Below, piece by piece: positions 4,461 to 57,219 of a stretch of 64,000 bases of DNA. The notes beneath the pieces were generated by a model. It saw nothing but the letters and a program-made list of their open reading frames with translations, made no database searches and was not told where the DNA came from. The stretch lies in contig CAVRNT010000002.1 of assembly GCA_963722655.1 (NCBI GenBank), forward strand, positions 138,520-202,519. Direction: 5' to 3'. Position 1 is the first letter of the stretch. Each line of letters begins with the position of its first letter. Both the position numbers and the translations under genes were made by a program. Source of the DNA: an uncultured bacterium (GTDB lineage: Bacteria; Patescibacteriota; Minisyncoccia; UBA6257; GWB1-50-10).

Positions 4461-5783
4461 TCAATATGCTCCGCGCTGGATGGTCGCGACGTCGCGCATC
4501 AGATAGCTCATCGGATCGATCGTAACCCCGACGGGCACGAGGCCGGCCGCCGGCGCGATGGCCTTGAGCTCGATGCTCGGCGTCCAGTAGAGGCCGAAGT
4601 GGACGTGCCCTCCCTCGGCATAACCGGTCTCCCCCGAATAGCCGATGAGTTGGCCCTTTTTGACCGTATCCCCCGCTTTGACGACCTGGCGTGAAAGGTG
4701 CGCGTAGAGTGTCGTCAGATTGTCCGCGTGGTCGATCATGATGTACTTGCCGTACTGGTACTTTTTCCAGCGCGAAGTGCCGCGGTCGTTGTTGTCCACC
4801 CGGAAGACCGTGCCGTCGGCGGCGGCATAGACGGGCGTCCCGATCGGGACGCCGATATCCACCCCGTTGTGGAAATGATTGCTGTAGGCCGTCTTGGCGT
4901 ATTGGGTGTAGCCGTAAAGCTGGGTTATGATCGGCTCATCGACCGGGAAGGCCAAAAGCCCGGGTAGTTTGGACGGCAGGAGGTTCGGATTGAAGGAGGC
5001 GCGCAATTGGTCTTCGATGCTGCCGATCTCCTGGTCGATGGCGGCTTCTTGGGCGTTGAGCTGGACGATCTGCTGCTGATAGATCTGCTCCTCGCCCTGC
5101 GTCTGGTTCAAAAGGGTCTGTTTGGCCGATTGCTGGTCGCTCAAGATGGACTGCTGATTGGTCAAATTCACCTGCTGTTCCTGTTTCTGTGCCTTGAGCG
5201 AGCTCGCGTCCTGGATGCTCTGCGAGAGCGACGTTTGGAGGTCCTGCAGGTCGGAGATGTTCTGATTGAAGGCCTGGTTCAAAAGCTCCGAGTTCTGGGC
5301 CTCGGCGACGGCATCCGAGAGCTTGCCGCTCTTCAAGATGACGGAGATCGCGTTCGGGCTCTCCTGCTGCTGGATCTCGACCATCAGCTGCGCGAGGGCG
5401 GCGTAGTGGTCTTTGACCTCCTGATTGATCGTCGTGATATTCTGCGAATCTGACTGCATTTGGAGCGTGAGCTTCTGGACCGTGATCTGATTGGACTGAA
5501 TTTGGAGGTTCAGTTGATCGATGTTGTTCGTGAGCGTCTGAACATCATTGCTAAGCGAGGTTTTGGACTGGCTGATCTGGTTCAGCTGGGTTTGGAGGGC
5601 GTCGCGCTGGGCCTGGATCTGCTGGAGTTCCGTGTTCTTGGCGTTGATCTGGTTCTGGAGGGCGTCCGCGGTCGTCGAGGTGGCCGTTTGGGCCGAGACC
5701 GAGCCCGCGGGACCGGCGATCAGAAAAACCGCCGCCCCAGCGACCAAAATAACCGCGAACGCTTTGAAGACCTTCTGGGACAT
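4461..5783 (-). CDS. M23 family metallopeptidase with N-terminal coiled coil (EnvC-like murein hydrolase activator/peptidase)
   Basis: Signal peptide after MSQKV, then a long Q/L-rich coiled-coil region. C-terminal LytM domain with HFHNGVDIG...D...HVHFG (HxxxD / HxH). Start placed at MSQKVFK because the upstream ORF part is Arg/Gly-rich GC noise and GGAAGG lies about 10 nt upstream. About 2 nt downstream of the gltX stop. Confidence 0.8.
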   Translation of the reverse strand: MSQKVFKAFAVILVAGAAVFLIAGPAGSVSAQTATSTTADALQNQINAKNTELQQIQAQRDALQTQLNQISQSKTSLSNDVQTLTNNIDQLNLQIQSNQITVQKLTLQMQSDSQNITTINQEVKDHYAALAQLMVEIQQQESPNAISVILKSGKLSDAVAEAQNSELLNQAFNQNISDLQDLQTSLSQSIQDASSLKAQKQEQQVNLTNQQSILSDQQSAKQTLLNQTQGEEQIYQQQIVQLNAQEAAIDQEIGSIEDQLRASFNPNLLPSKLPGLLAFPVDEPIITQLYGYTQYAKTAYSNHFHNGVDIGVPIGTPVYAAADGTVFRVDNNDRGTSRWKKYQYGKYIMIDHADNLTTLYAHLSRQVVKAGDTVKKGQLIGYSGETGYAEGGHVHFGLYWTPSIELKAIAPAAGLVPVGVTIDPMSYLMRDVATIQRGAY

Positions 5784-5785
5784 TT

Positions 5786-7201
5786 TTATTTGACCTTCCT
5801 TCCCAGTTTCTCGATGGCGACGTTTATCCGCCGGGTAGATTCCTCCGGCCCGAGGACCGCGATGATCTCGGCCGGCCCCGGCGAGGCGTCCAGCCCCGAA
5901 AGGGCGACCCGCAAAGGCCATAGGACCTCTCCCCGGCCGCGCTTCTCGGCAACCGTCATCAGATAATTCTCGATGACGTCCTTGCCGTCCCCCGGCGGGA
6001 CCTTGGCCAGCACGTCCAAAACGAAACGCAAGTTGTCCAAGATGGCGGCGGCCGGCGTATCGCGCCAGATGAGCTTCTGCGCCTCGTATTCAGGGAGTTC
6101 GAAGAAGAATCCAGCGAGGTTCTTGAAGTCCGTGAGAAGTCTCGCCCGCTCCTTCTCCACCCCTAAGACCTTGGCGAGGAAGACCTTGTCTTGCCGCCAC
6201 TTCTCCGGCAAAAAGGGCGCGGCTGCCTCGGCCAGCGTTTCGGGCGAGAGCTTCTTCAAATATTCGGCGTTCAACCATTCGAGTTTCGTCGGGTTGAAGA
6301 CCGCGCCGGCCTTCGATACCCGTTTGAAACTGAACTCATTGATCATCTCCTCGACGCTCACCACCTCGCGGTCCTCCTCCGGGTGCCAGCCCATCAACGC
6401 CATGAAGTTCAAAAAGGCCTCCTTGAGATATCCCTGGTCGCGGTAATCCAGGAGCGACGTCTCCAAAAATCTTTTGGAAAGCTTTTTGTGGTCTGGCCCC
6501 AAGATGAGCGGTAGGTGGGCGTAGTGCGGCGGTTCGATGCCCAAGGCCTCCGCGATCGCGATCTGCTTCGGGGTGTTCGAAAGATGGTCCTCGCCGCGGA
6601 TCACGTGGGTGATCGCCATCTCGTAGTCGTCCACGACGACGGCGAAGTTGTAGAGCGGCGAATTGAGGTCCTTCGCGATGACGACGTCGCCGATGAGGCC
6701 CAGATCGAATGAGACGCGGCCGCGGACGAGGTCGGTGAAGGCCGCCTCCTTCTCCGGCATCTTGAAACGGATGACGGCCGGCTGCTTTTTCATCCTCTCT
6801 TTCGCTTCGGCGGGCGGGATCGTCCGGCACCGGCCGCCGTATTTGGGCGGGAGCCCCTGGCTAAGGAGCGCTTGGCGCTCGGCCTCCAGTTCTTCGGGCG
6901 TGCAGAAACAATAATAGGCCTGACCGTTCTCCAAGAGCTTTCCCAGGTATTTCTTGTAGACCGCGAGGCGCTCGCTTTGGCGCCACGGCTCCTCGTCCCA
7001 GTCCAAGCCGAGCCACTTGAGGCCGTCCAGCAAGATCTTCTCGTATTCCTTCTTGGAACGCTCCTTATCCGTGTCCTCGATGCGCAAAAGGAACTGACCG
7101 CCATCGTGGCGGGCGAAGAGCCAATTAAAAAGCGCCGTTCGGGCGTTTCCCAAGCTGAACGGGCCCGTCGGCGAAGGCGCGAACCGGACTCTGACTGCCA
7201 T
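5786..7201 (-). CDS. gltX: Glutamyl-tRNA synthetase
   Basis: 471 aa. Class I aaRS catalytic core RFAPSPTGP..., KLSKR (KMSKS-like) and an anticodon-binding C-terminal domain. The HIGH position reads FSLGNA rather than HVGG. Confidence 0.85.
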   Translation of the reverse strand: MAVRVRFAPSPTGPFSLGNARTALFNWLFARHDGGQFLLRIEDTDKERSKKEYEKILLDGLKWLGLDWDEEPWRQSERLAVYKKYLGKLLENGQAYYCFCTPEELEAERQALLSQGLPPKYGGRCRTIPPAEAKERMKKQPAVIRFKMPEKEAAFTDLVRGRVSFDLGLIGDVVIAKDLNSPLYNFAVVVDDYEMAITHVIRGEDHLSNTPKQIAIAEALGIEPPHYAHLPLILGPDHKKLSKRFLETSLLDYRDQGYLKEAFLNFMALMGWHPEEDREVVSVEEMINEFSFKRVSKAGAVFNPTKLEWLNAEYLKKLSPETLAEAAAPFLPEKWRQDKVFLAKVLGVEKERARLLTDFKNLAGFFFELPEYEAQKLIWRDTPAAAILDNLRFVLDVLAKVPPGDGKDVIENYLMTVAEKRGRGEVLWPLRVALSGLDASPGPAEIIAVLGPEESTRRINVAIEKLGRKVK

Positions 7202-7242
7202 AGGCAGATTATAGCTTAAAACCTAGATTCTGTCACGAAAAA

Positions 7243-8328
7243 TCAGGTATTCAGCACCTCCCGGGCGATAAGCTCGGCAGCGTTGGGCTTGGCGAATCCC
7301 CTGGCCGCAGCGGACATTTTGTTCCGCAGATCTTCGTCTCCCAAAATTTTCATTATCTCCGTGAGCAACGCATTCGGCGTAAGGTCCGTTTCTTCCATCA
7401 CGATGGCCGCGCCGGTCTTGGCGTACTCATGGGCGTTCACGATCTGGTGCTCCCCCACCACGTCCGCCGGGAGCGGGACCAAAATGGCCGGTTTGCCGAA
7501 AGCCGCGATCTCGGCGACGGAGTTCGCTCCGGCGCGGGAGACGACGATGTTGGAGGCGGCGTAGGCATTCTTCATCTGCTCAAGGTCCATGAAACCGAAC
7601 GGCTTATATCCCTCTCTCCCCCCCGGCAGCTCCTTAAGATTCGCCGCGCCCGCCTGATGGACGACCTGGAACTTTTCCAAAAATTCCTGGAGGTTATCCC
7701 AAAAGAACTGATTGATGCGTTGGGCGCCCTGCGAACCGCCCATCACGAAGACGACCGGCCGGTCTGCATCCAAGCCCAAGATCGACCTGGCGGCTCTGCC
7801 TTCCGGTACCCTTTCCAAAAGCGCCAGGCGGACCGGATTACCGGCGACGACCACGTTCTTGTTCTTGAAATAGTTTGCGGCTGAAGCGAAACCGAGAATG
7901 ACCTTCCGGGCGAAACCGCCGGAGACCCGGTTCGTGAGGCCGGGAATGGTATCGGACTCGTGGACGACGATGGGGACGAAACAGATCCGGGCGGCGAGAA
8001 GTACCGCGAGGCCCCCCGGCCCGCCTTTCGAGAAGACGACGTCCGGCCGGAGAACGAAGACGAGTTTAAAGAACGCCTCCAGGAAACCCAAGATGAGCTG
8101 CGGAAAAGCGACGAGGTTCGCGATCGAAAAATACCTCCGCAACTTGCTTTGGATCACGGTGTGCGTCTTTATTCCTCTCGCCTCGAAATCGCCGAAGAAA
8201 CCGCTCCTCGGACCAATGTAGTCCAGGCGGACCGCCCCGCCGCCGAGCTTCTGGAGCGCGTCCGCGACGGCGAGGAGAGGCATAATGTGCCCGCCCGTTC
8301 CCCCGCCGACCAAAAGTATCCGTTTCAT
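7243..8328 (-). CDS. murG: UDP-N-acetylglucosamine--N-acetylmuramyl-(pentapeptide)-PP-undecaprenol GlcNAc transferase
   Basis: MKRILLVGGGTGGHIMPLLAVADAL... GT28 N-terminus, and a C-terminal MGGSQGA motif. Confidence 0.85.
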   Translation of the reverse strand: MKRILLVGGGTGGHIMPLLAVADALQKLGGGAVRLDYIGPRSGFFGDFEARGIKTHTVIQSKLRRYFSIANLVAFPQLILGFLEAFFKLVFVLRPDVVFSKGGPGGLAVLLAARICFVPIVVHESDTIPGLTNRVSGGFARKVILGFASAANYFKNKNVVVAGNPVRLALLERVPEGRAARSILGLDADRPVVFVMGGSQGAQRINQFFWDNLQEFLEKFQVVHQAGAANLKELPGGREGYKPFGFMDLEQMKNAYAASNIVVSRAGANSVAEIAAFGKPAILVPLPADVVGEHQIVNAHEYAKTGAAIVMEETDLTPNALLTEIMKILGDEDLRNKMSAAARGFAKPNAAELIAREVLNT

Positions 8329-8329
8329 A

Positions 8330-9427
8330 TCAGGATCTCCTCATGGCGACCTGGGTCGTGATGCCGCCCATCGTGAGCAAGATCGCGAGGGCCGTGCCGC
8401 CGTAACTGATGAAGGGTAAGGGCACGCCCGTGAGCGGAATGACGCCCGAGATGGCGCCGATGTTCACGAAGGCCTGGAGCCCGATGATGGTCATAAAACC
8501 GGTGACCATCAATCTACCAAAGGCGTCCGGCGCCCGTTTCGCGATCCGGAGCCCCCGCCAGATGAAGAGCAGGAAAAGGAGAACTAGCGCCCCCGCCCCC
8601 ACGAACCCCAGTTCCTCGCCGATCACGGCGAAGATGGAGTCGCCGATGGGCTCGGGCAGGAAGTGGAGCTTGGTCGTGGAGCGCCCGTAGCCCACGCCCC
8701 AAAGCCCGCCGGAGCCGATGGCGATGAGCGATTGGTTGATCTGGTAATTGGTACTCAAGGTGTTGCTCTGCTTGTTCAAAAATCCGGTCACCCGCTGCAG
8801 CCGGTAAGGGGTGGCGAGGAGGAGGACGGCGAAGGCCAACGCCCCGACGAGGATGACGAGGAGGATGTAGCGCCACTTCGCCCCGGCGGCGAAATACATC
8901 GCGAGGGCCCCGGCGGCGACGAGGGCCGCCGTCGTCGTCGCGGGCTGGAGGATAAGGGGTAAAAGGACGCTCGCGAGGAGCAAACCGAAGGGCAGAAGCC
9001 CCGCCCCGAAGCTTTGGGCCCGAGCCTTGCCTTTGGCAAGCCAAGCCGCGGCGTAGACTATGAAGGTGAACTTCACGACCTCACCGGGCTGAAAGGTGAA
9101 GCTCCCGAACTGGAGCCAGCGGTCGGCGCCGAGGGCATGGAAACCGAGGGGCGTGAAGACGAGGAGCAGGAGGCCGATGCTCAGGACGAGGAGCGGCACG
9201 CTGAACTTCGCCCAGAAGTGGTAATCCACGAAGAGGCCGACGAAGAAACCGACGATGCCGGGCAGGAGGCCGTAGAGGATCTGGTGCTCCAGATAATAGA
9301 AGCTCGAGCCGAACTGCGAACGGGCGAGGTCGGAAGAGGCGCTCGCGAGCATCACGAGGCCGAAGACCGTGAGGATGAAAAGGAAGGTGATGAAGGCGTA
9401 GTCGATGTTGCCCGCCAGGCGTTTCAT
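8330..9427 (-). CDS. ftsW: Peptidoglycan glycosyltransferase FtsW (SEDS family)
   Basis: 365-aa polytopic protein from MKRLAGNIDYAFITFL. C-terminal SEDS block LPEPIGDSIFAVIGEELGFVG...PLPFISYGGTA. The ATG overlaps the upstream gene's stop (ATGA). The longer ORF-track version (to 10291) is a GC artifact. Confidence 0.85.
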   Translation of the reverse strand: MKRLAGNIDYAFITFLFILTVFGLVMLASASSDLARSQFGSSFYYLEHQILYGLLPGIVGFFVGLFVDYHFWAKFSVPLLVLSIGLLLLVFTPLGFHALGADRWLQFGSFTFQPGEVVKFTFIVYAAAWLAKGKARAQSFGAGLLPFGLLLASVLLPLILQPATTTAALVAAGALAMYFAAGAKWRYILLVILVGALAFAVLLLATPYRLQRVTGFLNKQSNTLSTNYQINQSLIAIGSGGLWGVGYGRSTTKLHFLPEPIGDSIFAVIGEELGFVGAGALVLLFLLFIWRGLRIAKRAPDAFGRLMVTGFMTIIGLQAFVNIGAISGVIPLTGVPLPFISYGGTALAILLTMGGITTQVAMRRS

Positions 9428-10845
9428 AGGACCAAGCCGTTCCTTGCGACGGAAAAGACGCCGTCCGCGAAGACCTCGACGCCGCCGACGAAGACCGACT
9501 GGACCTTGTCGTCCCGGAGGATCACGATGTCGGCGAAATGGTCGGGGGCGATGAGGCCGCGTTTCTGGAGCCCCAGTTTTTTGGCCGGCGCGCCGGTGAG
9601 CTTGGCGATGATCTGTTCCTGGGGAAGCTTGCCACCCGAGGAAGCCGCCGCGAAGATCTCCTTGAAATCCCCTTCCGCTTCGTGAAAGCTCAAAGTGAGG
9701 ATGGTGCGGGCATTGCCGACGATTTCCTCGAGCACGGGTCCGTCGATCCCGGGGTCGGCGATGTGGCACTTGAGGCCGGTCGTGAGCGCAAGCTTGAGGA
9801 AGGCCCGTTCGGGGCGCGTTCCCCAACTCGCGGCGAGGTCGCCGATCCGCTTGCCTTTGAGGAACTTGAGATGTCGCGGCGCCTCGGCGACCCGCATTTC
9901 GGCGAGCGGCAACTTTTTGAAATGTTCCAGGACGCGGTCCTTGGCGTGGGCCGACTTGAGGTCGGCGAGCGTCGCCTCGAGCGTGCCGCTCCGGAACCAA
10001 TGTGGGAGGAACGAAGCGATGCCGAAATGGGCGTAAGGGAGTGGGAAGACGTCGAAGCCGACGTGCGCCCGGGCGGCCTGCTTTTCGATCGTTCCCAATG
10101 CGGTCTTCACCGCGGCCGCCTCCGCCGCCCGCGGTTCGAAGTGGGTGAACTCGATGCTCGCGCCGCTCTTCTTTCCCACGGCGAGAACCCGCCCGAGGCG
10201 TTCGCCAAGCTCCCCTGCCCCGCCGCTCAGATGGAGCGCGAGGACCTTCTTCGCTCGGCTCGCCTCGAGGGCGAGAGCGAGAAGCTCCCAATCCGGCAGG
10301 CGGAGGGCTTCAAGATCGCCCAAACCGATGCCCAGAGCGCCTTCTTTGAGGGCGGCCCTCACAACGAGAGCGAGCTGTTCCATCTCGCGGGGGTCCAGAT
10401 CGCGCCCTTCCCCGCCGGTGAAGGCGGCGCGGAGGCCCGCGTAGCCGACGAGCGTGCCGAAGTTTAAGGCCGGCTTCATCCTTTCGAACGTCCTCCGGAA
10501 TTCGCCGAGCGTCCGCCAAGAGTGGCTCGCGTGACGCAGGGGCAAAAGGAGCGGCGCGAGGGAGTTGCCGTCCGTGCCGTCCACGACGGTCGTGATGCCT
10601 CGGCGCAGGAGATAATGCTGGGCCTCGGCCGAAAAAATCTCGTCTTCGGATTCCGGTTCGAAATCCATCTCGACGACGCCCGGTATCACCGTCGCGCCCG
10701 TCGCGTCGATGACCCGCTCCGCTTCCCGCCGACCGATGTCACCCAAGCGTGCGACGCGCGCCCGTTGGACCAAGACGTCCGTCTTTTTGGGCGGTACGCC
10801 CGTGCCGTCGTAAACCAAACCGTTTTTAATGAGGACTGCGCTCAT
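9424..10845 (-). CDS. Amidohydrolase-superfamily protein (D-aminoacylase-like fold) lacking the HxH metal-binding motif
   Basis: N-terminus MSAVLIKNGLVYDGTGVPP...RLGDIG...VIDATGATVIPG is the typical small beta-sandwich lead-in of D-aminoacylase/dihydroorotase-type amidohydrolases. Where HTH(Y)D is expected it reads EMDFEP. It sits where murD normally lies, between mraY and ftsW. Confidence 0.55.
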   Translation of the reverse strand: MSAVLIKNGLVYDGTGVPPKKTDVLVQRARVARLGDIGRREAERVIDATGATVIPGVVEMDFEPESEDEIFSAEAQHYLLRRGITTVVDGTDGNSLAPLLLPLRHASHSWRTLGEFRRTFERMKPALNFGTLVGYAGLRAAFTGGEGRDLDPREMEQLALVVRAALKEGALGIGLGDLEALRLPDWELLALALEASRAKKVLALHLSGGAGELGERLGRVLAVGKKSGASIEFTHFEPRAAEAAAVKTALGTIEKQAARAHVGFDVFPLPYAHFGIASFLPHWFRSGTLEATLADLKSAHAKDRVLEHFKKLPLAEMRVAEAPRHLKFLKGKRIGDLAASWGTRPERAFLKLALTTGLKCHIADPGIDGPVLEEIVGNARTILTLSFHEAEGDFKEIFAAASSGGKLPQEQIIAKLTGAPAKKLGLQKRGLIAPDHFADIVILRDDKVQSVFVGGVEVFADGVFSVARNGLVL

Positions 10846-10860
10846 GTTTGCCGAGGTTTT

Positions 10861-11907
10861 TTAAATGAAGTGGGCCAAGAAGAAGAGGACCAGGCCGAAG
10901 ATCGTCACGACCGCCCCCACGATCCAGAAGCGCATCGTCACTTGGCTCTCGGGCCAGCCCAAGGCCTCGAAGTGGTGGTGGACCGGCGTCGAAAGGAAAA
11001 TCTTCCGCTTGAAGAACTTCTTGCTGATGAGCTGGATGATGACCGTGACCGATTCGGCCATCAAGACGAAGCCGAAGAACGGCAGGAAGAGCGCCGTGTC
11101 GGTCTGCATCGCCATCACGCCCAAGGCAACGCCCAAGGCCATCGAGCCCGTGTCACCCATGAAGAACTTGGCGGGATAGATGTTGAACCAAAGGAAGGCG
11201 AGGAGTGCTCCCAAGATCGCCGCGTTCATCGTCGCGAGATCGTAGTAGCCGAGGGTAAAAGCGACGACGGCGAAGGCGCCGAAGGCGAAAAGGAGGATGC
11301 CGCCCGCTAGGCCGTCCAAACCGTCCGTTTCGTTGGTGGAGAAGGCCGTCGCGACGATGACGAAGATGAAGAACGGGATGTACCACCAGCCGATGTCGAA
11401 GGTCCCGATGAAAGGCACGGCGAGCAGGTGCCGGCCGAGCCGGAAGTAGAACCACCAAGCGCCCAAGATGGCGACCAAGGTGTAGAGGGCAATCTTGTGC
11501 TTCATCTTGAGGCCGCCGCCGTGGGGCCCGATCTTCAAGATCCCCATGATGTCGTCCGCCATGCCGACCAAGGCCGCGAGGAGGAGGGCGGCGAGGGGCA
11601 GATAGGTCTCCTGCCGGCTCACGAAGTTGAAGTAATTGGCGAAACCGTCGAGGAAGTTCCCGGCGACGAGGAAGACGACGGCCAGGCCGATCACCGTCGC
11701 CCAGATGATGATGCCGCCCATCGTCGGGGTGTTCCCCTTGTGCTTATGGAACTGGTAGAAAACGGGGGCGCTCTTTTCGTCCCGGATGTTCACCTTCCGC
11801 AGATTGAACTTCTCGAGAGCGCGGAAAACGAACGGCGTGAGGATGAGCGCCACGACGAAGGAGAGGGCGAACATTATAAGGACCCGGGTTGCGGCAAATA
11901 CGGCCAT
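10861..11907 (-). CDS. mraY: Phospho-N-acetylmuramoyl-pentapeptide transferase
   Basis: Polytopic membrane protein with MADDIMG...STNETDGLDGLAGG...FFMGDTGSMALG motifs. Confidence 0.9.
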   Translation of the reverse strand: MAVFAATRVLIMFALSFVVALILTPFVFRALEKFNLRKVNIRDEKSAPVFYQFHKHKGNTPTMGGIIIWATVIGLAVVFLVAGNFLDGFANYFNFVSRQETYLPLAALLLAALVGMADDIMGILKIGPHGGGLKMKHKIALYTLVAILGAWWFYFRLGRHLLAVPFIGTFDIGWWYIPFFIFVIVATAFSTNETDGLDGLAGGILLFAFGAFAVVAFTLGYYDLATMNAAILGALLAFLWFNIYPAKFFMGDTGSMALGVALGVMAMQTDTALFLPFFGFVLMAESVTVIIQLISKKFFKRKIFLSTPVHHHFEALGWPESQVTMRFWIVGAVVTIFGLVLFFLAHFI

Positions 11908-11909
11908 TA

Positions 11910-12848
11910 TTAATCAGTATAGAACTTGTAGGCCTTTTGTACCCAATTCAAAATGTCATCCACTTCGCTCAGCCGGTCCCCGCTCCCCAAGATGACGACG
12001 GCCAAATGCTCGTTCCGGAAGGAGAGGATGGCCGCCAGGTTCTCCCCCGCCTTGGGCGAGGTGCCGGTCTTCCCGCCGAGGAAGTCGCCCCTCGTCGAAA
12101 GCGGGTCGATGTTCGCGACGATATTGGTGCGGTCGGAGTTCAAGGGCTGGGCGAGGAAGCTCGTGAGGCGGGTCCACCCCAAGATCTCCGGATGCCTCGC
12201 CAGGATGTAGTTCAAAAGCGCGAAGACGTCGCTCGCGGTCGTCGCGTCGTTGTCGTCCCACCCCGACGCGTCGTAGAGGACGGTGTTCCGCATCCCGATC
12301 GCCTGGGCCTTCGCCATGAGCATCGGGACGAACTGGTCGCGGCCGACGTAATCCGAAAAGGCCTCGGCGGCGCCGTTCGACGAAGCGAGGAGCATGATCC
12401 TCAAAAGGTCGCCGGAGTTGTAGATCTCGCCGCCCTTCAAATTCCCCGCCGTCCCTTCGGCAGTCGCGGTCGAGGTCGAAATCGGAATCTGCTTGTCGGT
12501 CCCGACATTTTCCAAGACGACCACCGCCGTGAGAAGCTTCGTGAGGGAGGCCATCGGCCAAGGACGTTCGGTGTTCACGCGCAGGTACGGGAAGTTGGTG
12601 TCCAAGGATTCCACGAGGACGGCCGAGGAGCTCACGTTCGGGTCCAACACGCTCCAATCGCGGACGGGGAGGTTGGCGTTCGTCCCCGCGCCCGCGCTCG
12701 CCGTGCCGCCGTAAGCGTCGGATGAGGTCGCCGCGTTCCCCGGCCGGTTCACGGTCGAGGCGGCGGGCGAACCCAAAAGCGAGCCGGCTTGCCACACGAG
12801 GACCGCCGCGAAGATGAGTAGCAGGACGATGATGAGCTGCCACTTCAT
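11910..12848 (-). CDS. D-alanyl-D-alanine carboxypeptidase (S11/PBP5-like, serine beta-lactamase fold)
   Basis: Signal/TM N-terminus, SxxK (ASLTK), SxN (ASSNGAAEA) and KTG (GGKTGTS) motifs in the right order. Confidence 0.7.
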   Translation of the reverse strand: MKWQLIIVLLLIFAAVLVWQAGSLLGSPAASTVNRPGNAATSSDAYGGTASAGAGTNANLPVRDWSVLDPNVSSSAVLVESLDTNFPYLRVNTERPWPMASLTKLLTAVVVLENVGTDKQIPISTSTATAEGTAGNLKGGEIYNSGDLLRIMLLASSNGAAEAFSDYVGRDQFVPMLMAKAQAIGMRNTVLYDASGWDDNDATTASDVFALLNYILARHPEILGWTRLTSFLAQPLNSDRTNIVANIDPLSTRGDFLGGKTGTSPKAGENLAAILSFRNEHLAVVILGSGDRLSEVDDILNWVQKAYKFYTD

Positions 12849-13432
12849 TGGACGGGCGGCACTTCCTTTTGCTCGGCCGTTTCTATGGCGCTTTCCGACT
12901 CGAACTGTTTCAAGATACCCTGGTATTTTTCGTACTCCGGCAGGTTCCGGATGCTCTTAACCCCCATATGTTTCAAAAAATCGAAACTGACGCTGTATTC
13001 GTAGACGTTCTTCTTGCCGGCTTCGAGCTCGCGGGTCACGAGACCGCGGATCAAAAGGTGCCGCAGCATGAAGGTGGAGTTCACGCCACGGATGTAATCG
13101 ATCGTGGAGCGCGGCACGGGGCCGAGGTACGCGATGAGCGATAGCGTCTCGAGGGCCGCGGGCGTGAGCTCCTCCTTGAACTCGCTCTCCAAGAGCTTCT
13201 TCGTGAGCCAAGCGAGATTCGGCTTCGTCGCGAGCTGGACCGACTTCCCCTCCTCGAGGAGCATCAAGCCGCGCTTCGGGTCGGCCGCGAGGTTCTGGGC
13301 AAGGACCTCTAAAAGCTCGCCGCATTCCTTTTCGGGAAAACCGGTGATCTTCGCGATCTTCGCCACCCCGATGGGCTCGCCGTAAAAGAAAAGAAGGGCT
13401 TCGATGGCCGCGAGTTTTTCGGATTCGTTCAT
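12845..13432 (-). CDS. scpB: Segregation and condensation protein B
   Basis: ScpB winged-helix signature EALLFFYGEPIGVAKIAKITGF...LETLSLIAYLGPVPRSTIDYIRGVNSTFMLRHL. ATG (MNESEK) at 13432 preferred. The ORF-track start at 13480 is a TTG. Confidence 0.75.
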   Translation of the reverse strand: MNESEKLAAIEALLFFYGEPIGVAKIAKITGFPEKECGELLEVLAQNLAADPKRGLMLLEEGKSVQLATKPNLAWLTKKLLESEFKEELTPAALETLSLIAYLGPVPRSTIDYIRGVNSTFMLRHLLIRGLVTRELEAGKKNVYEYSVSFDFLKHMGVKSIRNLPEYEKYQGILKQFESESAIETAEQKEVPPVQ

Positions 13433-13454: not shown

Positions 13455-14168
13455 CTAGGCGGGACCGCCGTTTTTGACAATCGTTATCTCCCCGAACTGC
13501 CCCGGCTGGTCAACGGAGATCAACTGGTCGCGGATCATATGCAATATGGCGAGGAAGAGCACGACGATCTCGCTCCGCGCTTTGCCGTTCTTGAGCTTGC
13601 CGAAGCCCATCGGCTTTTCCGTGAGACGGGCGAAGATCTCTTCGATCTTGGCCTTCAAGTTGATGATCTCGCTTTTGATCCGCACGACGGGCTTCAGGAA
13701 CTTTTCGATCTCCCCGAGAAGGTTTTGGAGGCCGGCTTTGATGTCTTTGGGCTCGATCTTGGAGGGCGGGTAGAAGGCCGGCGCCCGGGCCATCAAGAAT
13801 TCGCGCGTCATCAAGACCGGAACCGGATGCCAGTTGGACTTGATGTGTACCTGGGCCTTCTTTAACTCTTGATATAGCCGCAAACGCGCCTCTAAATTCT
13901 TGATATCGCTCTCCTCCTCTTCGGTCAAGGGTAGCGTCGGCAGGAGGACCTTGGATTTGATGAGGAGAAGCTTGGAGGCGACGACCAAAAAATCGGCCAC
14001 GAGCGAGTGGTCTTTGTGCTCGGCCTCAAGCTTCTTCAAATATTCAAAAAAACTGCCGGTCACTTCGGCCAGGTTCACGAGCGTTATCTCCATCTTTTTC
14101 TCCTCGATGAGCTCCAGTAATTTGCCGATCGGACCTTGGTAGCTCTCTAAGCTGAGTTCATAGGGCAC
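13455..14168 (-). CDS. scpA: Segregation and condensation protein A
   Basis: YELSLESYQGPIGKLLELIEEKKMEITLVNLAEVTGSFFEYLKKLE matches the ScpA N-terminus. Apparent GTG start at 14168. Confidence 0.75.
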   Translation of the reverse strand: MPYELSLESYQGPIGKLLELIEEKKMEITLVNLAEVTGSFFEYLKKLEAEHKDHSLVADFLVVASKLLLIKSKVLLPTLPLTEEEESDIKNLEARLRLYQELKKAQVHIKSNWHPVPVLMTREFLMARAPAFYPPSKIEPKDIKAGLQNLLGEIEKFLKPVVRIKSEIINLKAKIEEIFARLTEKPMGFGKLKNGKARSEIVVLFLAILHMIRDQLISVDQPGQFGEITIVKNGGPA

Positions 14169-14556: not shown

Positions 14557-14590
14557 AAAATGGCCACCGCGGGGTGACCATTTCATTAAA
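14551..14590. terminator. Bidirectional hairpin terminator between doxX-like and ychF
   Basis: ATGGCCACC-GCGG-GGTGACCAT imperfect palindrome, flanked by AAAAATAAAAA on one side and TTTCATTAAA on the other. Confidence 0.4.
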
Positions 14591-20750: not shown

Positions 20751-21764
20751 TTAGTGCGGGGAAATCAAACCTTGGATGTAATTGAATATACCTTGAATTT
20801 GCCCTCCGATGTTTTGAGGCACCGACAGTGAAGATGAAGAGGATCCGGCCACCTGACGTGGAGGGGACTGAATATTTTTTGGCGTTATTTTGAATAAATT
20901 TCCAATAAAAGAAAGCATCTTTTTAACTCCCGAAATAACAGTGTTCCCTACCGCAATGGCAGCAGTTTTAACCCCGCTGATGATAATACCAAATCCCGTT
21001 TTCCCGCTCTGGACTACATTGTTTGCGGATGGCGCAGCGACTGTCAGGAGAGGCCCGTTTATATTGTTAGGTGACCCCGGCGGCACAAAACGAGGTGGTG
21101 ATGAGGCGGGCGACGCCGTGTGCGGCACCGCAGTTTGAGGGGCACGTGCCGTCGGCGTTTTCGTAGACGGTGGGCTTGGGCTCTGGGATGGGGCTGCCGG
21201 CAGGGCCGCGGGCACACCAATCACCGTTCCGGTTTGTTGGACCGCTGTCGCAGCGCTCGCCAGCGCGACTTCGTAGCTCACCGTCCCGCACGAACTTGTA
21301 TTCGTGCAATTGAAGCTAACCCATCCGATGTTCTCGCCATACGCAAATCCGGAAAAATTGCCGGACCCGTCGATAGTCACGCCGTAACTCACTGTAAGGC
21401 ATGAGGAAGTGTTTGCGCAGCTGAAACTTATCCAGCCGACGTTTTCGCCCCACGCGTAGCCGGAAAGGTTTCCGGAGCCATCGTTCGTAACCCCGTAAGG
21501 CACGGTCAGGCATGAAGAGGTGTTCGAGCAATTCAAACTTATCCAGCCGACGTTCTCCCCCCAAGCGTAGCCAGTAAGCGCGCTTGTGCCTACGTTGACA
21601 TTCCCTTGTGAGGTTCCGAAATTAAGCCAGCCGACGTTCTCCCCCCACGCGTAGGCGTTCGTCGCGTCAATGCCGGCGGCAAGCACATTCGTCCAGGTAA
21701 ATAAAAAAATTAAGAGCCCCATGAGGAGCAGATAGTAATACCTATTTTCACCCAGCTTGCTCAT
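20751..21764 (-). CDS. Secreted repeat protein with four AWGENVGW-type repeats
   Basis: Signal/TM N-terminus, then four roughly 37-aa repeats (GYAWGENVGWISxxCxNTSSCLTVxYGVTxDGSGNxSG), each with a Cys pair. Pro/Ser-rich linker and a hydrophobic C-terminal segment. ATG at 21764 preferred over the GTG at 21785. Confidence 0.6.
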   Translation of the reverse strand: MSKLGENRYYYLLLMGLLIFLFTWTNVLAAGIDATNAYAWGENVGWLNFGTSQGNVNVGTSALTGYAWGENVGWISLNCSNTSSCLTVPYGVTNDGSGNLSGYAWGENVGWISFSCANTSSCLTVSYGVTIDGSGNFSGFAYGENIGWVSFNCTNTSSCGTVSYEVALASAATAVQQTGTVIGVPAALPAAPSQSPSPPSTKTPTARAPQTAVPHTASPASSPPRFVPPGSPNNINGPLLTVAAPSANNVVQSGKTGFGIIISGVKTAAIAVGNTVISGVKKMLSFIGNLFKITPKNIQSPPRQVAGSSSSSLSVPQNIGGQIQGIFNYIQGLISPH

Positions 21765-21768
21765 AGGA

Positions 21769-22032
21769 TCACTGACAGACGCCACCGGTCAGCTTAGTTA
21801 TGATGCAACGCGAGACCGCAACCGCGCTTCCGGTCGAGCTCGCGCTCACGCCGGATGAATTGAAAGTCCCAGCCAGCGCATTATATATATCTCCCAACGT
21901 GTTCATGGTAGCCGCAGGAATGGCCAGCGGCGTGAAAGTTCCAGCTTGAGCGACCCTGATGAGCGATGTAACAACTACGACGGATGCTATGATGATCGCC
22001 GTTTCAAGGATGGCTCGCCATATTTTCCTCAT
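21769..22032 (-). CDS. Small secreted protein sharing the N-terminal module of the downstream giant surface protein
   Basis: MRKIWRAILETAIIIASVVVVTSLIRVAQA signal peptide. Mature N-terminus GTFTPLAIPAATMNTLGDIYNALAGTFNS aligns almost residue-for-residue with GSLTPSTSPASTMNSLSDVYNAIAGTFDS of ORF 22037..24355. Two C-terminal Cys. Confidence 0.5.
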   Translation of the reverse strand: MRKIWRAILETAIIIASVVVVTSLIRVAQAGTFTPLAIPAATMNTLGDIYNALAGTFNSSGVSASSTGSAVAVSRCIITKLTGGVCQ

Positions 22033-22036
22033 TTGA

Positions 22037-24355
22037 TTATTGCGTTGAAGATGATGCGTCGGAAGATACGCTCGGCGTAGATGTCGCGTCATTTGCCAAC
22101 GGTGTTACGGTTACATCGGTTGACGTTGCCGCGGTCGAAGTCGTCGATGCATCAGGCGATGTCGTCGTGGAAACATCCGTAGGCGTTGGCGTGTTTGCGC
22201 CTACATTTGCCTCGACGTTTTGGTCTGGTGCGGAAAGCAATGGGGCGCTACAGGAACCGGGTGTTTTTACAAAATCGCCGTTTTCAATGACTACGCAGTA
22301 AATTTGCCCGGTCAACCTATCCGTCATTTCAATTTGATCGGTGACCACCTTCCCAGCCGTCAGCACGCCCACCACGAGATTTTTCAATGTCAGCAAACCT
22401 TGCTGAATAGTGGCCCCGATCTGCGTAAAGAACGAAGTGACGGAACCGACGATATCGGTGCTTGCAACGGCCGCCGTCGAGCTCTGCTCCACCTGATAGC
22501 CCGGGGCTAAGAAGAACCCGATATTGATGAAAACCGGAATTTCCCCCGGCGTTGGATCGGAAAAGTTTTCAAGCGCGTAACCCACAATGTCGCCCGAGAG
22601 CGTGGCCTTCATCCCAATGCCAGCTACGGACGAAACCGTAATTGGATCGCCGATGCTTATTTCGCCGTTTTCCGTGGATACTTTGACCGGCACGCGTCCC
22701 TTGAGCGCGACCGGCCGAGTGTCAGCACCGCTCATCCCAAGCGTCACACCAGGTGCGGTGGAAACAACGCCGATCAACCTGCCCCCGTAAGATTGGGCTT
22801 TCACGATGTGTTCAGAAGCAAGGAGGTCGGCCGCAACGAGATCGCCCGCCTCAAGTGTGGGATCGTTCGTTGGGTAGTTTTCGGCGACGTCGATGCCGGT
22901 CACCAAAGTGGACGAGGCATAAATAGTGCCAGCGACCGGTGCAGCGGGACAATTGGTCCCGGTTGCGGCGCCATTGTCGACACACAGACCCCCGTTCGCG
23001 ATGTCCATGTTCTTCTGCGCCGTCCCATTACCCAAAACAAAATCGTAGGCGGGTGTAGTGGTGCCGATACCGATGTTGCCAGCCGATGTAATGTAGAGCA
23101 GTGGCGTTGAGACCGATGAGGAAGTGTAGATAGCCAACAACGGGTTGGTAGAAGTACCTTGGATTGTTAGCTCGGCTGCCATGGTCGTGGTTCCGATACT
23201 TACTAAGGTGTGGAAGGCGTTCGTCGAATAGATACTAGTCCCTGTCGCATTGGTGAACCAGAGGCCAGTGGTTGTGGCGGTTGTGAATGTCCCTGTGGCG
23301 AAGACAAGGGAACTGCCGAAGAGATTGGTGCCGGTGGCATTGGTGAACCAGAGGTTAGTGGTTGTGGCATTGATATGGAAGGCATTGGTCGATGAGGCGA
23401 TGCCTGAAAGGGTGATGTTGGTCCCTGTCGCATTGGTGAACCAGAGGCCAGTGGTTGTGGCGGTTGTGAATGTCCCTGTGGCGAAGACAAGGGAACTGCC
23501 GAAGAGATTGGTGCCGGTGGCATTGGTGAAACTGAAGGTGGTGCTGGTAGCAGAGAGGAAGAAGGCCTTTGCCGAAGAGGCTATGCCGGAGAGGGTGATA
23601 TTGGTCCCTGTCGCATTGGTGAACCAGAGACCTGTCGTTGTGGCGGTTGTGAAGGTACCGGTTGCAAAGACCAATCCAGATCCGAAGAGGCTAGTGCCGG
23701 TGGCGTTAGTGAACCAGAGGTTAGTGGTTGTGGCATTGATATGGAAGGCATTGGTCGATGAGGCGATGCCTGAAAGGGTGATGTTGGTCCCTGTCGCATT
23801 GGTGAACCAGAGGCCAGTGGTTGTGGCGGTTGTGAATGTCCCTGTGGCGAAGACAAGGGAACTGCCGAAGAGATTGGTGCCGGTGGCGTTATTATATGTG
23901 AGAAGATTAGAGAAGGTAGAGGTGCCGGAGACGGAGAGCGAAGTGATGGTGGAAGTGGTGAGAGTTGCCTGACCTGTGTTGCTGATGCGCGTGGTGGTTG
24001 CAATCTCGAGGCCCCCCGTGACAATATTGATGTCCATGTTGGTGAGGGTCGCGTTTCCGGACGAAGAAGCGAACAGGATATTGTTCACAATGTATTTTAG
24101 ATTTTGAATGAGCGTACCGGTCGCGCTCGGCGCAATCGCGGTCGAATCGAAAGTGCCGGCTATCGCGTTATAGACGTCCGAAAGAGAGTTCATCGTGGAG
24201 GCGGGTGAGGTGGATGGCGTTAAACTACCAGCGTGCGCCAAAGAGACCGTGGCAATCAAAGAAAGGCAGACAACTAAAAACAGTTTGGCTAGAACCTTTC
24301 TGCCGTTGCTTCGGGAATATCCTCCCTTAGGTTTTTTACGAGAAACCTGTTTCAA
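22037..24355 (-). CDS. Large secreted T/N/G-rich repeat protein (adhesin- or fibre-like), 772 aa
   Basis: Signal peptide (LSLIATVSLAHA), the conserved N-terminal module, then about 3.6 near-identical 60-aa repeats (NATGTNLFGSSLVFATGTFTTATTTGLWFT / NATGTNITLSGIASSTNAFHINATTTNLWFT). A Cys-pair segment (CVDNGAATGTNC), a beta-rich C-terminal domain and an S/T-rich tail. Promoter-like TATAAT plus AGGGGG RBS upstream at 24356-24420. Confidence 0.7.
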   Translation of the reverse strand: MKQVSRKKPKGGYSRSNGRKVLAKLFLVVCLSLIATVSLAHAGSLTPSTSPASTMNSLSDVYNAIAGTFDSTAIAPSATGTLIQNLKYIVNNILFASSSGNATLTNMDINIVTGGLEIATTTRISNTGQATLTTSTITSLSVSGTSTFSNLLTYNNATGTNLFGSSLVFATGTFTTATTTGLWFTNATGTNITLSGIASSTNAFHINATTTNLWFTNATGTSLFGSGLVFATGTFTTATTTGLWFTNATGTNITLSGIASSAKAFFLSATSTTFSFTNATGTNLFGSSLVFATGTFTTATTTGLWFTNATGTNITLSGIASSTNAFHINATTTNLWFTNATGTNLFGSSLVFATGTFTTATTTGLWFTNATGTSIYSTNAFHTLVSIGTTTMAAELTIQGTSTNPLLAIYTSSSVSTPLLYITSAGNIGIGTTTPAYDFVLGNGTAQKNMDIANGGLCVDNGAATGTNCPAAPVAGTIYASSTLVTGIDVAENYPTNDPTLEAGDLVAADLLASEHIVKAQSYGGRLIGVVSTAPGVTLGMSGADTRPVALKGRVPVKVSTENGEISIGDPITVSSVAGIGMKATLSGDIVGYALENFSDPTPGEIPVFINIGFFLAPGYQVEQSSTAAVASTDIVGSVTSFFTQIGATIQQGLLTLKNLVVGVLTAGKVVTDQIEMTDRLTGQIYCVVIENGDFVKTPGSCSAPLLSAPDQNVEANVGANTPTPTDVSTTTSPDASTTSTAATSTDVTVTPLANDATSTPSVSSDASSSTQ
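23239..23890. repeat. Tandem DNA repeats (about 180-nt unit, about 3.6 copies) inside the giant surface-protein gene
   Basis: Near-identical units begin near 23239, 23420, 23600 and 23780. They are in frame with the 60-aa protein repeats and create a spurious 240-aa antisense ORF (23250..23972). Confidence 0.8.
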
Positions 24356-50345: not shown

Positions 50346-54086
<3,741 letters not shown>

Positions 54087-57000
54087 ACTCGTACCCGACG
54101 CTGAGTCCCAAGGATTTGAGCTCCGAGACCAAGACGTTGAACGAGGCCGGGATGTTCGGTTTCCGGATCTCCTCGCCGCGGATGATGGATTCGAAGGCCG
54201 CGGAGCGCCCCATCACGTCATCGGACTTAATGGTCAGCATCTCCTGGAGGGTGTGGGCCGCGCCGTACCCTTCGAGGGCCCAGACCTCCATTTCGCCGAA
54301 GCGCTGGCCGCCGAGCTGGGCCTTGCCGCCCAAGGGCTGCTGGGTGATCAAGGAATAAGGACCGGTCGAGCGCACGTGCATCTTGTCCTCGACCAAGTGG
54401 TTCAGTTTCATCATGTAAATGTAGCCCACGGTCACCGGGTCGCGGAACGCCTTGCCGGTCAAACCGTCGTAGACGGTCATTTTGCCGTCCTCGCGATAAC
54501 CCGCCTTCTTGAGCTCCTCTTTGATCTCGTCCTCGGAGGCGCCGACGAAGTTCGGCACGACCGCCCGGTAGCCCATCTTTTTGGCGGCGAGACCGAGATG
54601 GGTCTCAAGGATCTGACCGAGGTTCATGCGGGAAGCGACGCCCAAGGGGTTCAAGACGATGTCCACCGGCGTGCCGTCCTCGAGGTACGGCATATCTTCC
54701 ACTTTGCGGATCTGGGAGATGACACCTTTGTTGCCGTAGCGGCCGGCGAGCTTGTCGCCCGCCCGGACCTTACGGAGCTGGGCCACTTCGACCTGGATCT
54801 TCTTGATAATGCCCGGGTCGAGTTTGTCACCCTTGTCACGGGAGAAGATCTTGATGCCGATGATGCGCCCTTGCTTGCCGTGGGGCAGGATGAGGGAGGA
54901 GTCCTTTACGTCGCGGGCCTTCTCACCGAAGATGGCGCGAAGTAGCCGCTCCTCGGACGTGAGCTCGGACTCTCCTTTGGGCGATATTTTCCCGACCAGA
55001 ATGTCGTTCGCCCTCACCTCGGCACCGATGCGGACGATGCCATCCGCGTCCAAGTTGCGGAGCTTATCCTCGGCCACGTTCGGGATGTCCATCGTCGTCA
55101 TTTCGGGACCGAGCTTCGTCTCGCGGACGAGGCAGGTGAAGGTCTCGATGTAGATCGAGGTGAAGCGGTCCTCGCGGGCGACCCGCTCGGAAAGGATGAT
55201 GGCATCCTCGAAGTTCAAACCGTGCCACGGCAGAAAGGCCACGAGGAGGTTCTGGCCGAGGGCGAGTACGCCGTCCTTCGTCGCTGGACCGTCGGCCAAG
55301 ACCGTCCCTTTCCTCACCTTATCGCCCACCGCGACCGCCGGCCGCTGGGACATACAGGTCGATTGGTTGGAACGCTTGAATTTGTAAATAGGGTAGGATC
55401 GCGCACCGTCCGCGGTCTTGACCGTCACGCCACGGCCGTCGGCCTCCGTGACGACACCCGAAGCGTCGGCGAGGATGACCTGGCCGGAATCCTGGGCGGC
55501 CCGCTCCTCGAGGCCCGTACCGATCAAGGGCTCCTCGGGATTCACGGTCGGCACCGCCTGCCTTTGCATGTTCGAACCCATGAGGACGCGGTTCGCGTCG
55601 CTGTGTTCCAAAAACGGGATGATGCCGGTCGCGACGCTCGTCATCTGGTCGGGCGAAACGTCCATCAGCTCCACTCCCCCCTTGGGGCAGGTGCTCGGTT
55701 TGCCCTTGACCCGCGCGGGCACGACTTCAGGGGAGATGTTGCCGCTCTCCTCAAGCGGCGTGTCGGCCTGAATGATGTTGTACTTTTGCTCCGTGATAGC
55801 GTCGAGCCAGACGACCTCCTTGGTCACGATGCCATTTTTGACTTTGAAATAAGGGGCTTCGAGGAAGCCGAAGTCGTTCACCCGGACGAAGTTCGAAAGA
55901 TAATGGACCAAACCGATGTTCGCGCCTTCCGGTGTCTGAATGGGGCAAAGTCGCCCGTAATAGGACGGATGGACGTCGCGCACTTCGAAGCCGGCCCGTT
56001 CCCGGGTGAGACCGCCCGGTCCCATCGCCGAGAGCCTCCGCTTGTGCTCCAGCTCCGCCAAGGGGTTCACTTGGTCCATGAACTGGGAAAGCTGGGAGGA
56101 AGCGAAGAAATCGCGCACGACGGAGGTGAGGAGCTTGTAATTGATGAGCTGGGCCGGCTGGAGGCCGTGGCGGTCCAAAGTGGACATTCGGTCCTGGACA
56201 CCGCGCCGGAGGCGGGCAAAACCGATGCGCAAGCGCGATTGGACCAGTTCCCCGACCGAGCGGATCCGGCGGTTACCCAAATGGTCGATGTCGTCCGGTT
56301 CGGCCGCCGGGTCGTTGTTCAAACGGACGATCTCCCGCACGGCGGCGAGGAGGTCCTCCAAGTCCAAAAGCCGACTCTCCTTCTTCTTGATATCGAGACG
56401 CTGGTTGAACTTGTACCGGCCGACCGGGCTCAGGTCGTACCGATCGAAACGCGAGAACATCGGCTCGATAAGGAGCTTGGCATTCTCGACGGTCGCGAGG
56501 TCGCCGGGGCGGAGGCGTTTGTAGATTTCGATGAAGGCCTCGTCGGCGGTCTTCGTGTCATCCTTTTTAAGCGTCGCGGGAAGAAACTTAAAATCGCCGG
56601 CATCGACGGCAGCGAACTCTTTGAGGATCGCGTCGTTCTCGGCCAGGCCGAAGAGACGCAAAAGCTGGGTGATCGGCGCCTTACGGCGGCGGTCGATCTT
56701 CACCCCGATGTAACCGTCGGACTCGGTCTCGATCTCGAGCCAAGCACCGCGGTTCGGGATGATCTTCGCGCCGAAAAGCTTCCGGCCGCGGTAGACGTTG
56801 CCGGTGAAATAGATCCCGGGCGAGCGGATGATCTGGGAGATGACGACGCGCTCCACGCCGTTCACGATGAACGTCCCGCGGTCGGTCATGATCGGGAAAT
56901 CGCCCAAGTAGACCTCCTGGGTCTTGGATTCCTTCGTCTCCCGATTCACGAGCTTCACGTTGACGCGCAAGGGCGCCTCGTAGGTCTGGTCCTTCTCGAT

Positions 57001-57219
57001 GGCCTTCTGCTCCGTATACTTCGGCTGGTCGAACTTATAGTCGAGGAAGGAAAGTTCCAGTTCCTTGCCGGTGTGGTCCTTGATCGGCGAGATCTCCTCG
57101 AAAAGCTCTTTGAGACCGGTTTTGACGAACCAGGCATAGGACTTCGTCTGGATCTCCACCAGGTTGGGGGCGGTGTAGACCGGGCCGTTGTATTTTGAGA
57201 AAACTTTCAGCTTCATAAT

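Follow-up and report, generated by a model that had tools for sequence, protein, structure and literature searches.

A degenerate D-aminoacylase homologue in the division and cell wall cluster of Patescibacteria is a candidate pseudoenzyme of peptidoglycan precursor synthesis

Introduction

Few gene strings are conserved across bacteria as strongly as the division and cell wall (dcw) cluster, which is usually portrayed as a cluster from which genes are lost but not gained. Here we analyze a 64,000-nucleotide stretch of DNA from an uncultured member of the Patescibacteriota (assembly GCA_963722655.1, contig CAVRNT010000002.1, positions 138,520 to 202,519), hereafter the window, in which a gene that we call X, encoding a degenerate homologue of D-aminoacylases, stands between mraY and ftsW. 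The window keeps the mraY ... ftsW-murG order and orientation of the canonical string murF-mraY-murD-ftsW-murG-murC, and two related loci (L082 and L083) go on as murG-murC-...-murB. It departs from the canonical string in having scpA-scpB-dac before mraY in place of murE/murF, X after mraY, no murD within the cluster, and gltX and an M23 peptidase gene after murG.

By family, the closest described proteins are the D-aminoacylases and N-acyl-D-glutamate deacylases. X shares their three-part fold (template modelling (TM) scores of 0.78–0.81, E ~1e-23), keeps two histidines of their beta-metal site, and carries an Asp at the position of Cys96, as do some intact members. Unlike them, it is ~50 residues shorter through loop deletions, is without the HxH dyad, Asp366, the n-site Tyr, the c-site Tyr (YPY changed to FPL) and the c-site Arg (loop deleted), and lies inside the dcw cluster, which holds for none of 52 homologues from outside the Patescibacteria. 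In terms of mechanism, the inactive dihydroorotase-like chain (pDHO, PyrC') of Pseudomonas aeruginosa ATCase may be the nearest functional precedent by analogy: Its gene stands with that of the enzyme for the neighbouring pathway step, and that enzyme requires it (PMC7053772). Both pDHO and the CRMP/DPYSL proteins belong to the amidohydrolase superfamily, have lost catalysis, and are kept as structural partners, but they come from another subfamily and pathway than X.

A further parallel lies in the MurD2/MurL system of Xanthomonas, in which the gene of a murD-type ligase has a neighbour whose product, an accessory protein, handles the glutamate of UDP-MurNAc-L-Ala-Glu. Members of the X family likewise adjoin murD in at least seven Patescibacteria loci, and the ancestral substrates of the family would be of the N-acyl-D-Glu type. 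However, MurL is ATP-dependent, whereas X is homologous to amidohydrolases and has no conserved catalytic residues; in addition, murI stands beside X at one locus (L039), and the window has no adjacent murD. Since MurL has no known domains according to the literature and X is a clear amidohydrolase homologue, we consider it unlikely that X is a MurL-family member.

Amidohydrolase-superfamily pseudoenzymes are already known, and so are accessory genes next to murD, murL being one; the novelty lies in the X family itself, in where it stands in the cluster, and in the graded way in which it decays. A literature search returned nothing linking dcw clusters of the candidate phyla radiation (CPR) with D-aminoacylase homologues. 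Judging from the residues compared across its orthologues, X is probably a pseudoenzyme acting as a non-catalytic structural or regulatory partner in peptidoglycan precursor synthesis (with MurD, MraY, MurG or FtsW).

Results

X is a predicted D-aminoacylase homologue that has lost most functional residues

X (9424..10845, minus strand) encodes a 473-amino-acid protein, and both profile and structure searches uphold the original prediction, made from the letters of the window, that it is a D-aminoacylase/amidohydrolase homologue. The Pfam family Amidohydro_3 scores 34.9 bits (cut-off 29.7) in a match that covers only residues 405–448, and phmmer against the PDB returns 3gip at 7.6e-24 (residues 6–271) and 1m7j at 1.6e-22. 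An AlphaFold (AF2) model built on 28 homologues, with a predicted local distance difference test (pLDDT) of 86.9 and a predicted TM score (pTM) of 0.88, has an N/C-terminal beta-sandwich, a (beta/alpha)8 barrel, and an inserted alpha/beta domain; in Foldseek it matches 9g5m, 3gip, 1m7j and 9kb3 at TM 0.78–0.81, while the next-best folds (hydantoinases, dihydroorotases and CRMPs) reach only ~0.5. X is thus confidently predicted to belong to the D-aminoacylase/N-acyl-D-glutamate deacylase branch of the amidohydrolase superfamily. The motifs LIKNGLVYDGTG and VIDATGATVIPG are present at residues 5 and 45. Neither a signal peptide nor a membrane segment is apparent in the sequence, the N-terminus being the first beta-strand of the sandwich domain, and the protein would be cytoplasmic. 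The closest homologues all come from metagenome-assembled genomes of Patescibacteria, Paceibacterota or Minisyncoccia.

To compare active sites, we scored nine functional positions in the numbering of 1M7J (His67, His69, Cys96, Tyr192, His220, His250, Tyr283, Asp366 and Arg377), with residue roles, including that of the YPY motif, taken from PMC12149444. X retains three of the nine in our alignments, and all three belong to the beta-metal site: D92 (10570..10572) at the position of the ligand Cys96, H205 (10231..10233) for His220, and H235 (10141..10143) for His250. The metal-binding and catalytic HxH dyad of the alpha-site, His67/His69, is replaced by EMDFEP (residues 59–64; 10654..10671), which puts D and E at the two histidine positions, and no HxH occurs anywhere in the X sequence. 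At the n-site, which receives the acyl group, Tyr192 is D. At the c-site, which binds the carboxylate, the YPY hinge motif is FPL (residues 267–269; 10039..10047), so that the carboxylate-binding Tyr283 is lost to F, and the HPR loop that carries Arg377 is deleted. It would follow SFHE (residues 386–389; 9679..9690), whose S386 stands where the general base Asp366 is found after beta-strand 8. All of these positions are read on the minus strand.

The replacement of HxH by EMDFEP had been pointed out in the original prediction, which described X as a protein without its metal site. That description fits the alpha-site, where HxH and the Asp are gone, but not the beta-site, whose three positions D92, H205 and H235 are present and could, from their sequence, still bind a metal; these positions are not conserved in orthologues of the same synteny. 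The decisive losses are wider than HxH, and take in the general base Asp366, the n-site Tyr, and both the Tyr and the Arg of the c-site. An Asp at the Cys96 position is also found in three intact homologues (P0033, P0036 and P0046).

Linkage of X to cell wall genes is conserved in Patescibacteria

A genome scan for X homologues yielded 80 loci, 28 from Patescibacteria and 52 from other phyla (L-numbers denote loci). Among the 28 Patescibacteria loci, ftsW is present in 21, murG in 19, mraY in 12 and murD in 8, while among the 52 others, ftsW occurs once and murG and mraY never. Fisher tests give p = 2e-12 for ftsW, 6e-12 for murG and 5e-7 for mraY, for loci that are not phylogenetically independent; this enrichment indicates that the arrangement is not due to chance. 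Linkage to the dcw genes that is conserved in Patescibacteria and missing from the 52 other loci likewise speaks against a generic neighbour unrelated to the cluster, one of the outcomes that the original prediction had named as refuting it. In position, X is a component of the dcw cluster: It lies on the same strand as its neighbours, is tightly spaced, and is conserved across divergent genomes.

The full string scpA-scpB-dac-mraY-X-ftsW-murG-gltX-M23 recurs down to 24–30% identity in X, and ftsW follows the X homologue directly in 20 of the 28 Patescibacteria loci. The ATGA overlap of X and ftsW is shared by the window, its closest relative L084, and six of 19 scored loci (L003, L008, L009, L012, L019 and L021); the junction measures at most 6 nucleotides in 15 of these 19 Patescibacteria loci and at most 32 in all of them. 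At L019, a restriction-modification insertion separates mraY from X, and the 4-nucleotide overlap of X and ftsW persists. The insert (L019:3249-4753) consists of an MjaI-type restriction endonuclease gene and a DNA methylase gene.

The open reading frame of X is of full or similar length in 28/28 loci, at identities down to 25%, and is never truncated. X is at the same time the fastest-evolving gene of the cluster, with 68% identity between the window and L084, versus 74–88% for its neighbours, and 33–39% versus 58–76% at greater distance. Such rapid evolution agrees with release of the protein from the demands of catalysis. Across the family, some Gly, Pro, Asn, Arg and Asp positions are still invariant, and no pocket-specific polar residue was found among them. 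Sequence constraint on X is relaxed, but real.

Functional residues decay in a graded manner

Loss of the general base separates Patescibacteria copies from all others: Asp366 is kept in four of 28 versus 51 of 51 alignable copies from other phyla (p = 2e-16), and 24 of these 51 keep all nine positions. The four Patescibacteria copies that retain Asp366 are those of L039 (9/9 positions kept), L040 (8/9), L019 and L021 (both 7/9). Copies linked to murD (eight loci) show a particular combination, having kept the c-site Tyr and Arg in 8/8 and the n-site Tyr in 7/8, while Asp366 has become Asn or Ala in 7/8 and His67 is lost in 7/8. This combination, with the anchors retained and Asp366 changed to Asn or Ala, is what one would expect of a substrate trap. 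All eight murD-adjacent copies keep the c-site anchors, versus 6/20 of the others (p = 0.002).

Copies in the mraY-X-ftsW arrangement (20 loci) range from 8/9 positions kept (L040) down to 0/9 (L002 and L009), with 3/9 in the window. In orthologues whose mraY-X-ftsW synteny is identical, as few as 0–2 positions survive (L002 and L009, 0/9; L005, L014 and L017, 1/9), and the metal ligands of these five are lost altogether; in sister orthologues of this synteny, H220 is replaced by R, S, E or K, and H250 by R, N or Q. The wider family, 203 clusters at E<=1e-30, shows the same tendency: When the 151 closest 50%-identity representatives were scored by fast alignment, which makes the counts approximate, 111 kept at most 4/9 positions and only 10 kept at least 8/9. 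In a neighbour-joining tree, the strongly degenerate ftsW-linked copies all sit on long branches, and the murD-linked and intact copies form a second, shorter-branched group.

A separate pattern was seen in a subfamily from Acidobacteriota/Chthoniobacterales (L028, L032, L033, L035, L048, L050, L051, L059, L063, L064, L070, L074 and L080, with L026, L031, L041, L053 and L077 similar), which has L/W or L/H and a gap at the positions of His67, His69 and Cys96 and keeps Tyr192, His220, His250, Tyr283, Asp366 and Arg377. This may reflect either an alignment shift or a distinct variant of the metal site.

X accompanies murD in relatives

The original prediction placed X in the murD slot, as a protein lacking the Mur-ligase GxxGKS/T motif. 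The position stands, and so does the lack of the motif: Neither G..GK[ST] nor GK[ST] occurs anywhere in X. We can rule out that X is itself a MurD or another Mur ligase, since it has no Mur-ligase match in Pfam or NCBIfam and has the predicted fold of an amidohydrolase. The idea of a substitution is not supported, because X and genuine murD coexist in the clusters of relatives, making X an additional dcw gene rather than a murD substitute. In eight scanned Patescibacteria loci the X homologue is linked to a MurD with MurD-like_N, Mur_ligase_M and Mur_ligase_C domains (TIGR01087, 267–373 bits; cut-off 212). In L015, L016, L020, L022, L024 and L039, murD is the next gene after X, and in L023 a single gene separates the two; the order in L027 is mraY - X - NlpC/P60 - ? 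- murD - PLP (pyridoxal phosphate) enzyme - ATP-grasp - ftsW - murG. Starting independently from MurD, with a profile search of which the best 120 of 3,905 matches were considered, we found two further Parcubacteria/Pacebacteria genomes (L082 and L083) with the order mraY - ? - X - ? - NlpC/P60 - ? - murD - ... - ftsW - murG - murC - ... - murB. These orders place the home of the X family between mraY and murD.

The cluster of the window's lineage no longer includes murD. Searches of the whole 64 kb, with five MurD proteins from Patescibacteria as tblastn queries (E<=1e-3) and with Pfam on large open reading frames, revealed no Mur ligase. None was found within ~10 kb of X at the 20 loci with the X-ftsW arrangement either, and the 39 kb of L084, which has the same synteny as the window, contain no murD. 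Relatives with the X-ftsW arrangement carry murE and murC 6–10 kb downstream, so the ordinary pathway is presumably present, and we infer that murD is located elsewhere in the window genome.

At L039 (Moranbacteria GW2011_GWC2_40_12), the order is murI-X-murD, with murI identified by TIGR00067 (215.6 bits versus a cut-off of 146.65) and X intact at 9/9 positions. This segment (L039:8096-12977, beginning with a GAPDH gene before the glutamate racemase gene murI) is the only locus in which two D-Glu enzymes flank X.

Several other features of these loci deserve mention. In the expanded dcw cluster of Parcubacteria/Pacebacteria (L082:4229-17065, L083:4745-16786 and L027:8753-20216), mraY and ftsW are separated by X, the gene of an NlpC/P60 peptidase, murD, a gene on the opposite strand for a 50-amino-acid LysW-type zinc ribbon, and genes for a ThrC-like PLP enzyme and an ATP-grasp_3 protein, with an amino-acid permease and VanZ encoded upstream; to find a LysW-like carrier together with an ATP-grasp ligase inside a cell wall cluster is unusual. 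At L006:16523-18768, and also at L007, L010 and L012, the M23 peptidase gene is followed by a FemX-like aminoacyl transferase gene and then murE, with murC a few kb on, an arrangement that suggests branched stem peptides in these Patescibacteria. Outside the Patescibacteria, murD was found near a homologue at one locus only (L065:3012-7104, on a contig labelled Candidatus Sumerlaeota that may be mis-binned), where a D-aminoacylase homologue intact at 9/9 positions precedes a gene of the class A beta-lactamase family, with murD ~1.4 kb beyond the latter.

The MurD proteins of L015, L016, L020, L022, L023, L027 and L039 read NDT[A/T/Q]AT where E. coli has NDSKAT (Lys319), and have Phe in place of E. 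coli Leu416. E. coli MurD K319T has been reported to accept L-Glu (PMC8788868). We reject this substitution as a sign of L-Glu use, because it is also found in the MurD of L039, where murI adjoins X.

Gene string and junctions in the window

On the minus strand, gene calls together with Pfam, TIGR and other NCBIfam models give the order scpA-scpB-dac-mraY-X-ftsW-murG-gltX-M23 peptidase, in agreement with the original prediction for the stretch from dac to murG. Upstream of X are scpA (13455..14168) and scpB (12845..13432), conserved neighbours called with Pfam support; dac (11910..12848; Peptidase_S11, E=3.9e-24); and mraY (10861..11907; TIGR00445, 195.6 bits, cut-off 192; Glycos_transf_4). 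Downstream are ftsW, of the SEDS family (8330..9427; TIGR02614, 333.5 bits); murG (7243..8328; TIGR01133, 234.5 bits; N- and C-terminal Glyco_transf_28 domains); and two conserved neighbours, gltX (5786..7201) and the M23 peptidase gene (4461..5783). The product of dac, which had been predicted to be a D-Ala-D-Ala carboxypeptidase encoded before mraY, is of the S11 family and has intact SxxK, SxN and KTG motifs (SLTK101, SSN156 and KTG260) behind an N-terminal membrane anchor, making it a credible extracellular DD-carboxypeptidase.

Read from the sequence, the X stop codon TGA (9426–9424) and the ftsW ATG (9427–9425) overlap as ATGA, which is the predicted 4-nucleotide junction. The predicted 16-nucleotide spacer proved to be 15 nucleotides, between the mraY stop codon (10863–10861) and the X ATG at 10845. 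The spacing of dac and mraY is 2 nucleotides, and scpB and dac overlap by 4. GC content at third codon positions (GC3) is 0.81 in X, as in the neighbouring genes, which indicates that the frame is truly coding. A promoter and terminator scan suggests that the transcription unit starts after a hairpin at 14584–14557, and gltX may have its own promoter at 7236–7208; terminator-like sites in that scan (15 versus 13.1 expected) are at chance level.

Elsewhere on the minus strand of the window, a gene for a second SEDS protein (FTSW_RODA_SPOVE, 58223–59311) overlaps a YceG/MltG gene (57220–58239) that directly precedes rpoB and rpoC (50346–57216), placing two SEDS glycosyltransferases less than 50 kb apart in this small genome. 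Three consecutive open reading frames at 20751–24355 (minus strand; 344, 107 and 772 amino acids, the first and last without a Pfam match) have GC contents of ~0.44–0.52, 0.53–0.56 and 0.55–0.62 at the three codon positions, versus 0.55–0.62, 0.3–0.45 and 0.75–0.9 in neighbouring genes; they could encode surface proteins that evolve fast, be of foreign origin, or be wrongly called frames. At 62493–63971 (minus strand), a 492-amino-acid VirD4/TraG-like coupling ATPase with HerA/DUF87, TrwB and TraG-D_C matches is encoded, in keeping with the type IV secretion system that has been reported in Patescibacteria (PMC12102498).

Discussion

The original prediction had also proposed that X is non-catalytic or repurposed and tightly coupled to lipid I/II synthesis. 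Coupling to mraY, ftsW and murG is conserved, and the comparison of residues favors a non-catalytic protein, although several points weigh against that reading. D92, H205, H235 and H388/E389 are conserved in 9/10 of the closest homologues, and the sub-clade of the window may, on this residue pattern, have a remodelled mononuclear site. All residue assignments come from alignments at 22–35% identity; depending on the alignment, the equivalent of Asp366 is S386 or a gap, with no conserved Asp close by. The neighbour-joining tree, with its long branches, is too crude to establish a single origin, monophyly, or the order and date of the losses.

One alternative is that X is still an enzyme, with D92/H205/H235 as a remodelled metal site and H388/E389 as the base, acting on a D-amino-acid-containing peptidoglycan intermediate, for example in trimming or editing stem peptides or in releasing D-Glu or D-Ala. 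We regard this as unlikely, though less so than the other alternatives. The three beta-site positions carry competent ligands, one of them the Asp that also occurs in P0033, P0036 and P0046; SFHE is conserved in 9/10 of the closest homologues; and the intact or near-intact copies of L039, L040, L019 and L021 occur in the same gene contexts, which indicates that the ancestor was probably an enzyme. Yet the universal Asp of beta-strand 8, both HxH histidines and all three substrate anchors are gone from X, a homologue with 57% identity to it (P0010) is without D92 and H388, and sister proteins of the same synteny have replaced H220 and H250, in a family where no pocket-specific polar residue is invariant. 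It is much less probable that X is a decaying relic or generic neighbour, kept only for translational coupling into ftsW. Its fast evolution and eroding functional residues would agree with such a fate, but decay alone sits poorly with an intact frame of similar length in every Patescibacteria locus, more than 200 clusters at E<=1e-30, a fold confidently predicted from the family alignment, persistent invariant Gly, Pro, Asn, Arg and Asp positions, and a place kept despite rearrangements such as the insertion at L019.

Least probable of all, in our judgment, is that murD is truly absent and X replaces it or its chemistry, as a non-homologous D-Glu-adding enzyme or a MurL-like stereochemistry partner. 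X does occupy exactly the canonical murD position, with no Mur ligase in the window or around X in the X-ftsW loci; substrates of its family are N-acyl-D-Glu-type compounds, as is the MurD product; X-adjacent MurDs have A, T or Q at the position of E. coli K319; and the MurD2/MurL system offers the precedent of an unannotated murD neighbour that is essential for D-Glu incorporation (PMC8788868, PMC5808125). Against this, X has neither an ATP-binding motif nor a ligase fold, X and a genuine MurD occur together in L027, L082, L083 and seven further loci, and L039 has murI beside X yet shows the same K319 substitution. MurC and MurE encoded near X in X-ftsW relatives point to an ordinary pathway, and MurL is reported to have no known domains while X is a clear amidohydrolase.

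The reading that we favor is that X became a pseudoenzyme after its family had been recruited into the dcw cluster, ancestrally between mraY and murD. The recruited ancestor was probably a working N-acyl-D-Glu-type deacylase tied to the D-glutamate step; we infer such a role from the murI-X-murD order, the adjacency to murD, and the fact that the MurD product is itself an N-acyl-D-glutamate. Hydrolysis would have been lost early and repeatedly, with the ligand anchors also lost where murD left the cluster, until most lineages, and most completely that of the window, gave up the residues for hydrolyzing and holding an N-acyl-D-amino acid. X would still be made as a folded protein of the cytoplasm, its gene sharing a transcript with ftsW and being coupled to it in translation. 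Orthologues in the same position share no metal ligands or pocket residues but keep fold, length, and coupling to ftsW, and the function is therefore most simply a non-catalytic one, exerted through partners that may include those encoded beside it. More tentatively, and as a proposal that we hold to be doubtful in its full extent, the X family could be an unrecognized peptidoglycan-precursor component across the Patescibacteria, passing from an N-acyl-D-glutamate deacylase to a non-hydrolyzing binder and, in the window's lineage, to a purely protein–protein scaffold for FtsW, MraY and MurG.

The finding corrects the annotation of X-family proteins, which public records list as deacylases. It also means that a large radiation has added a gene to the dcw cluster, and keeps that gene despite the erosion of its enzymatic residues. 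If X serves MurD, MraY or FtsW as a scaffold or as a ligand-holding partner, it would provide a natural series with intact, trap-like and fully degenerate grades for the study of the change from enzyme to pseudoenzyme, and a lineage-specific handle on cell wall organization in ultra-small, host-dependent bacteria.

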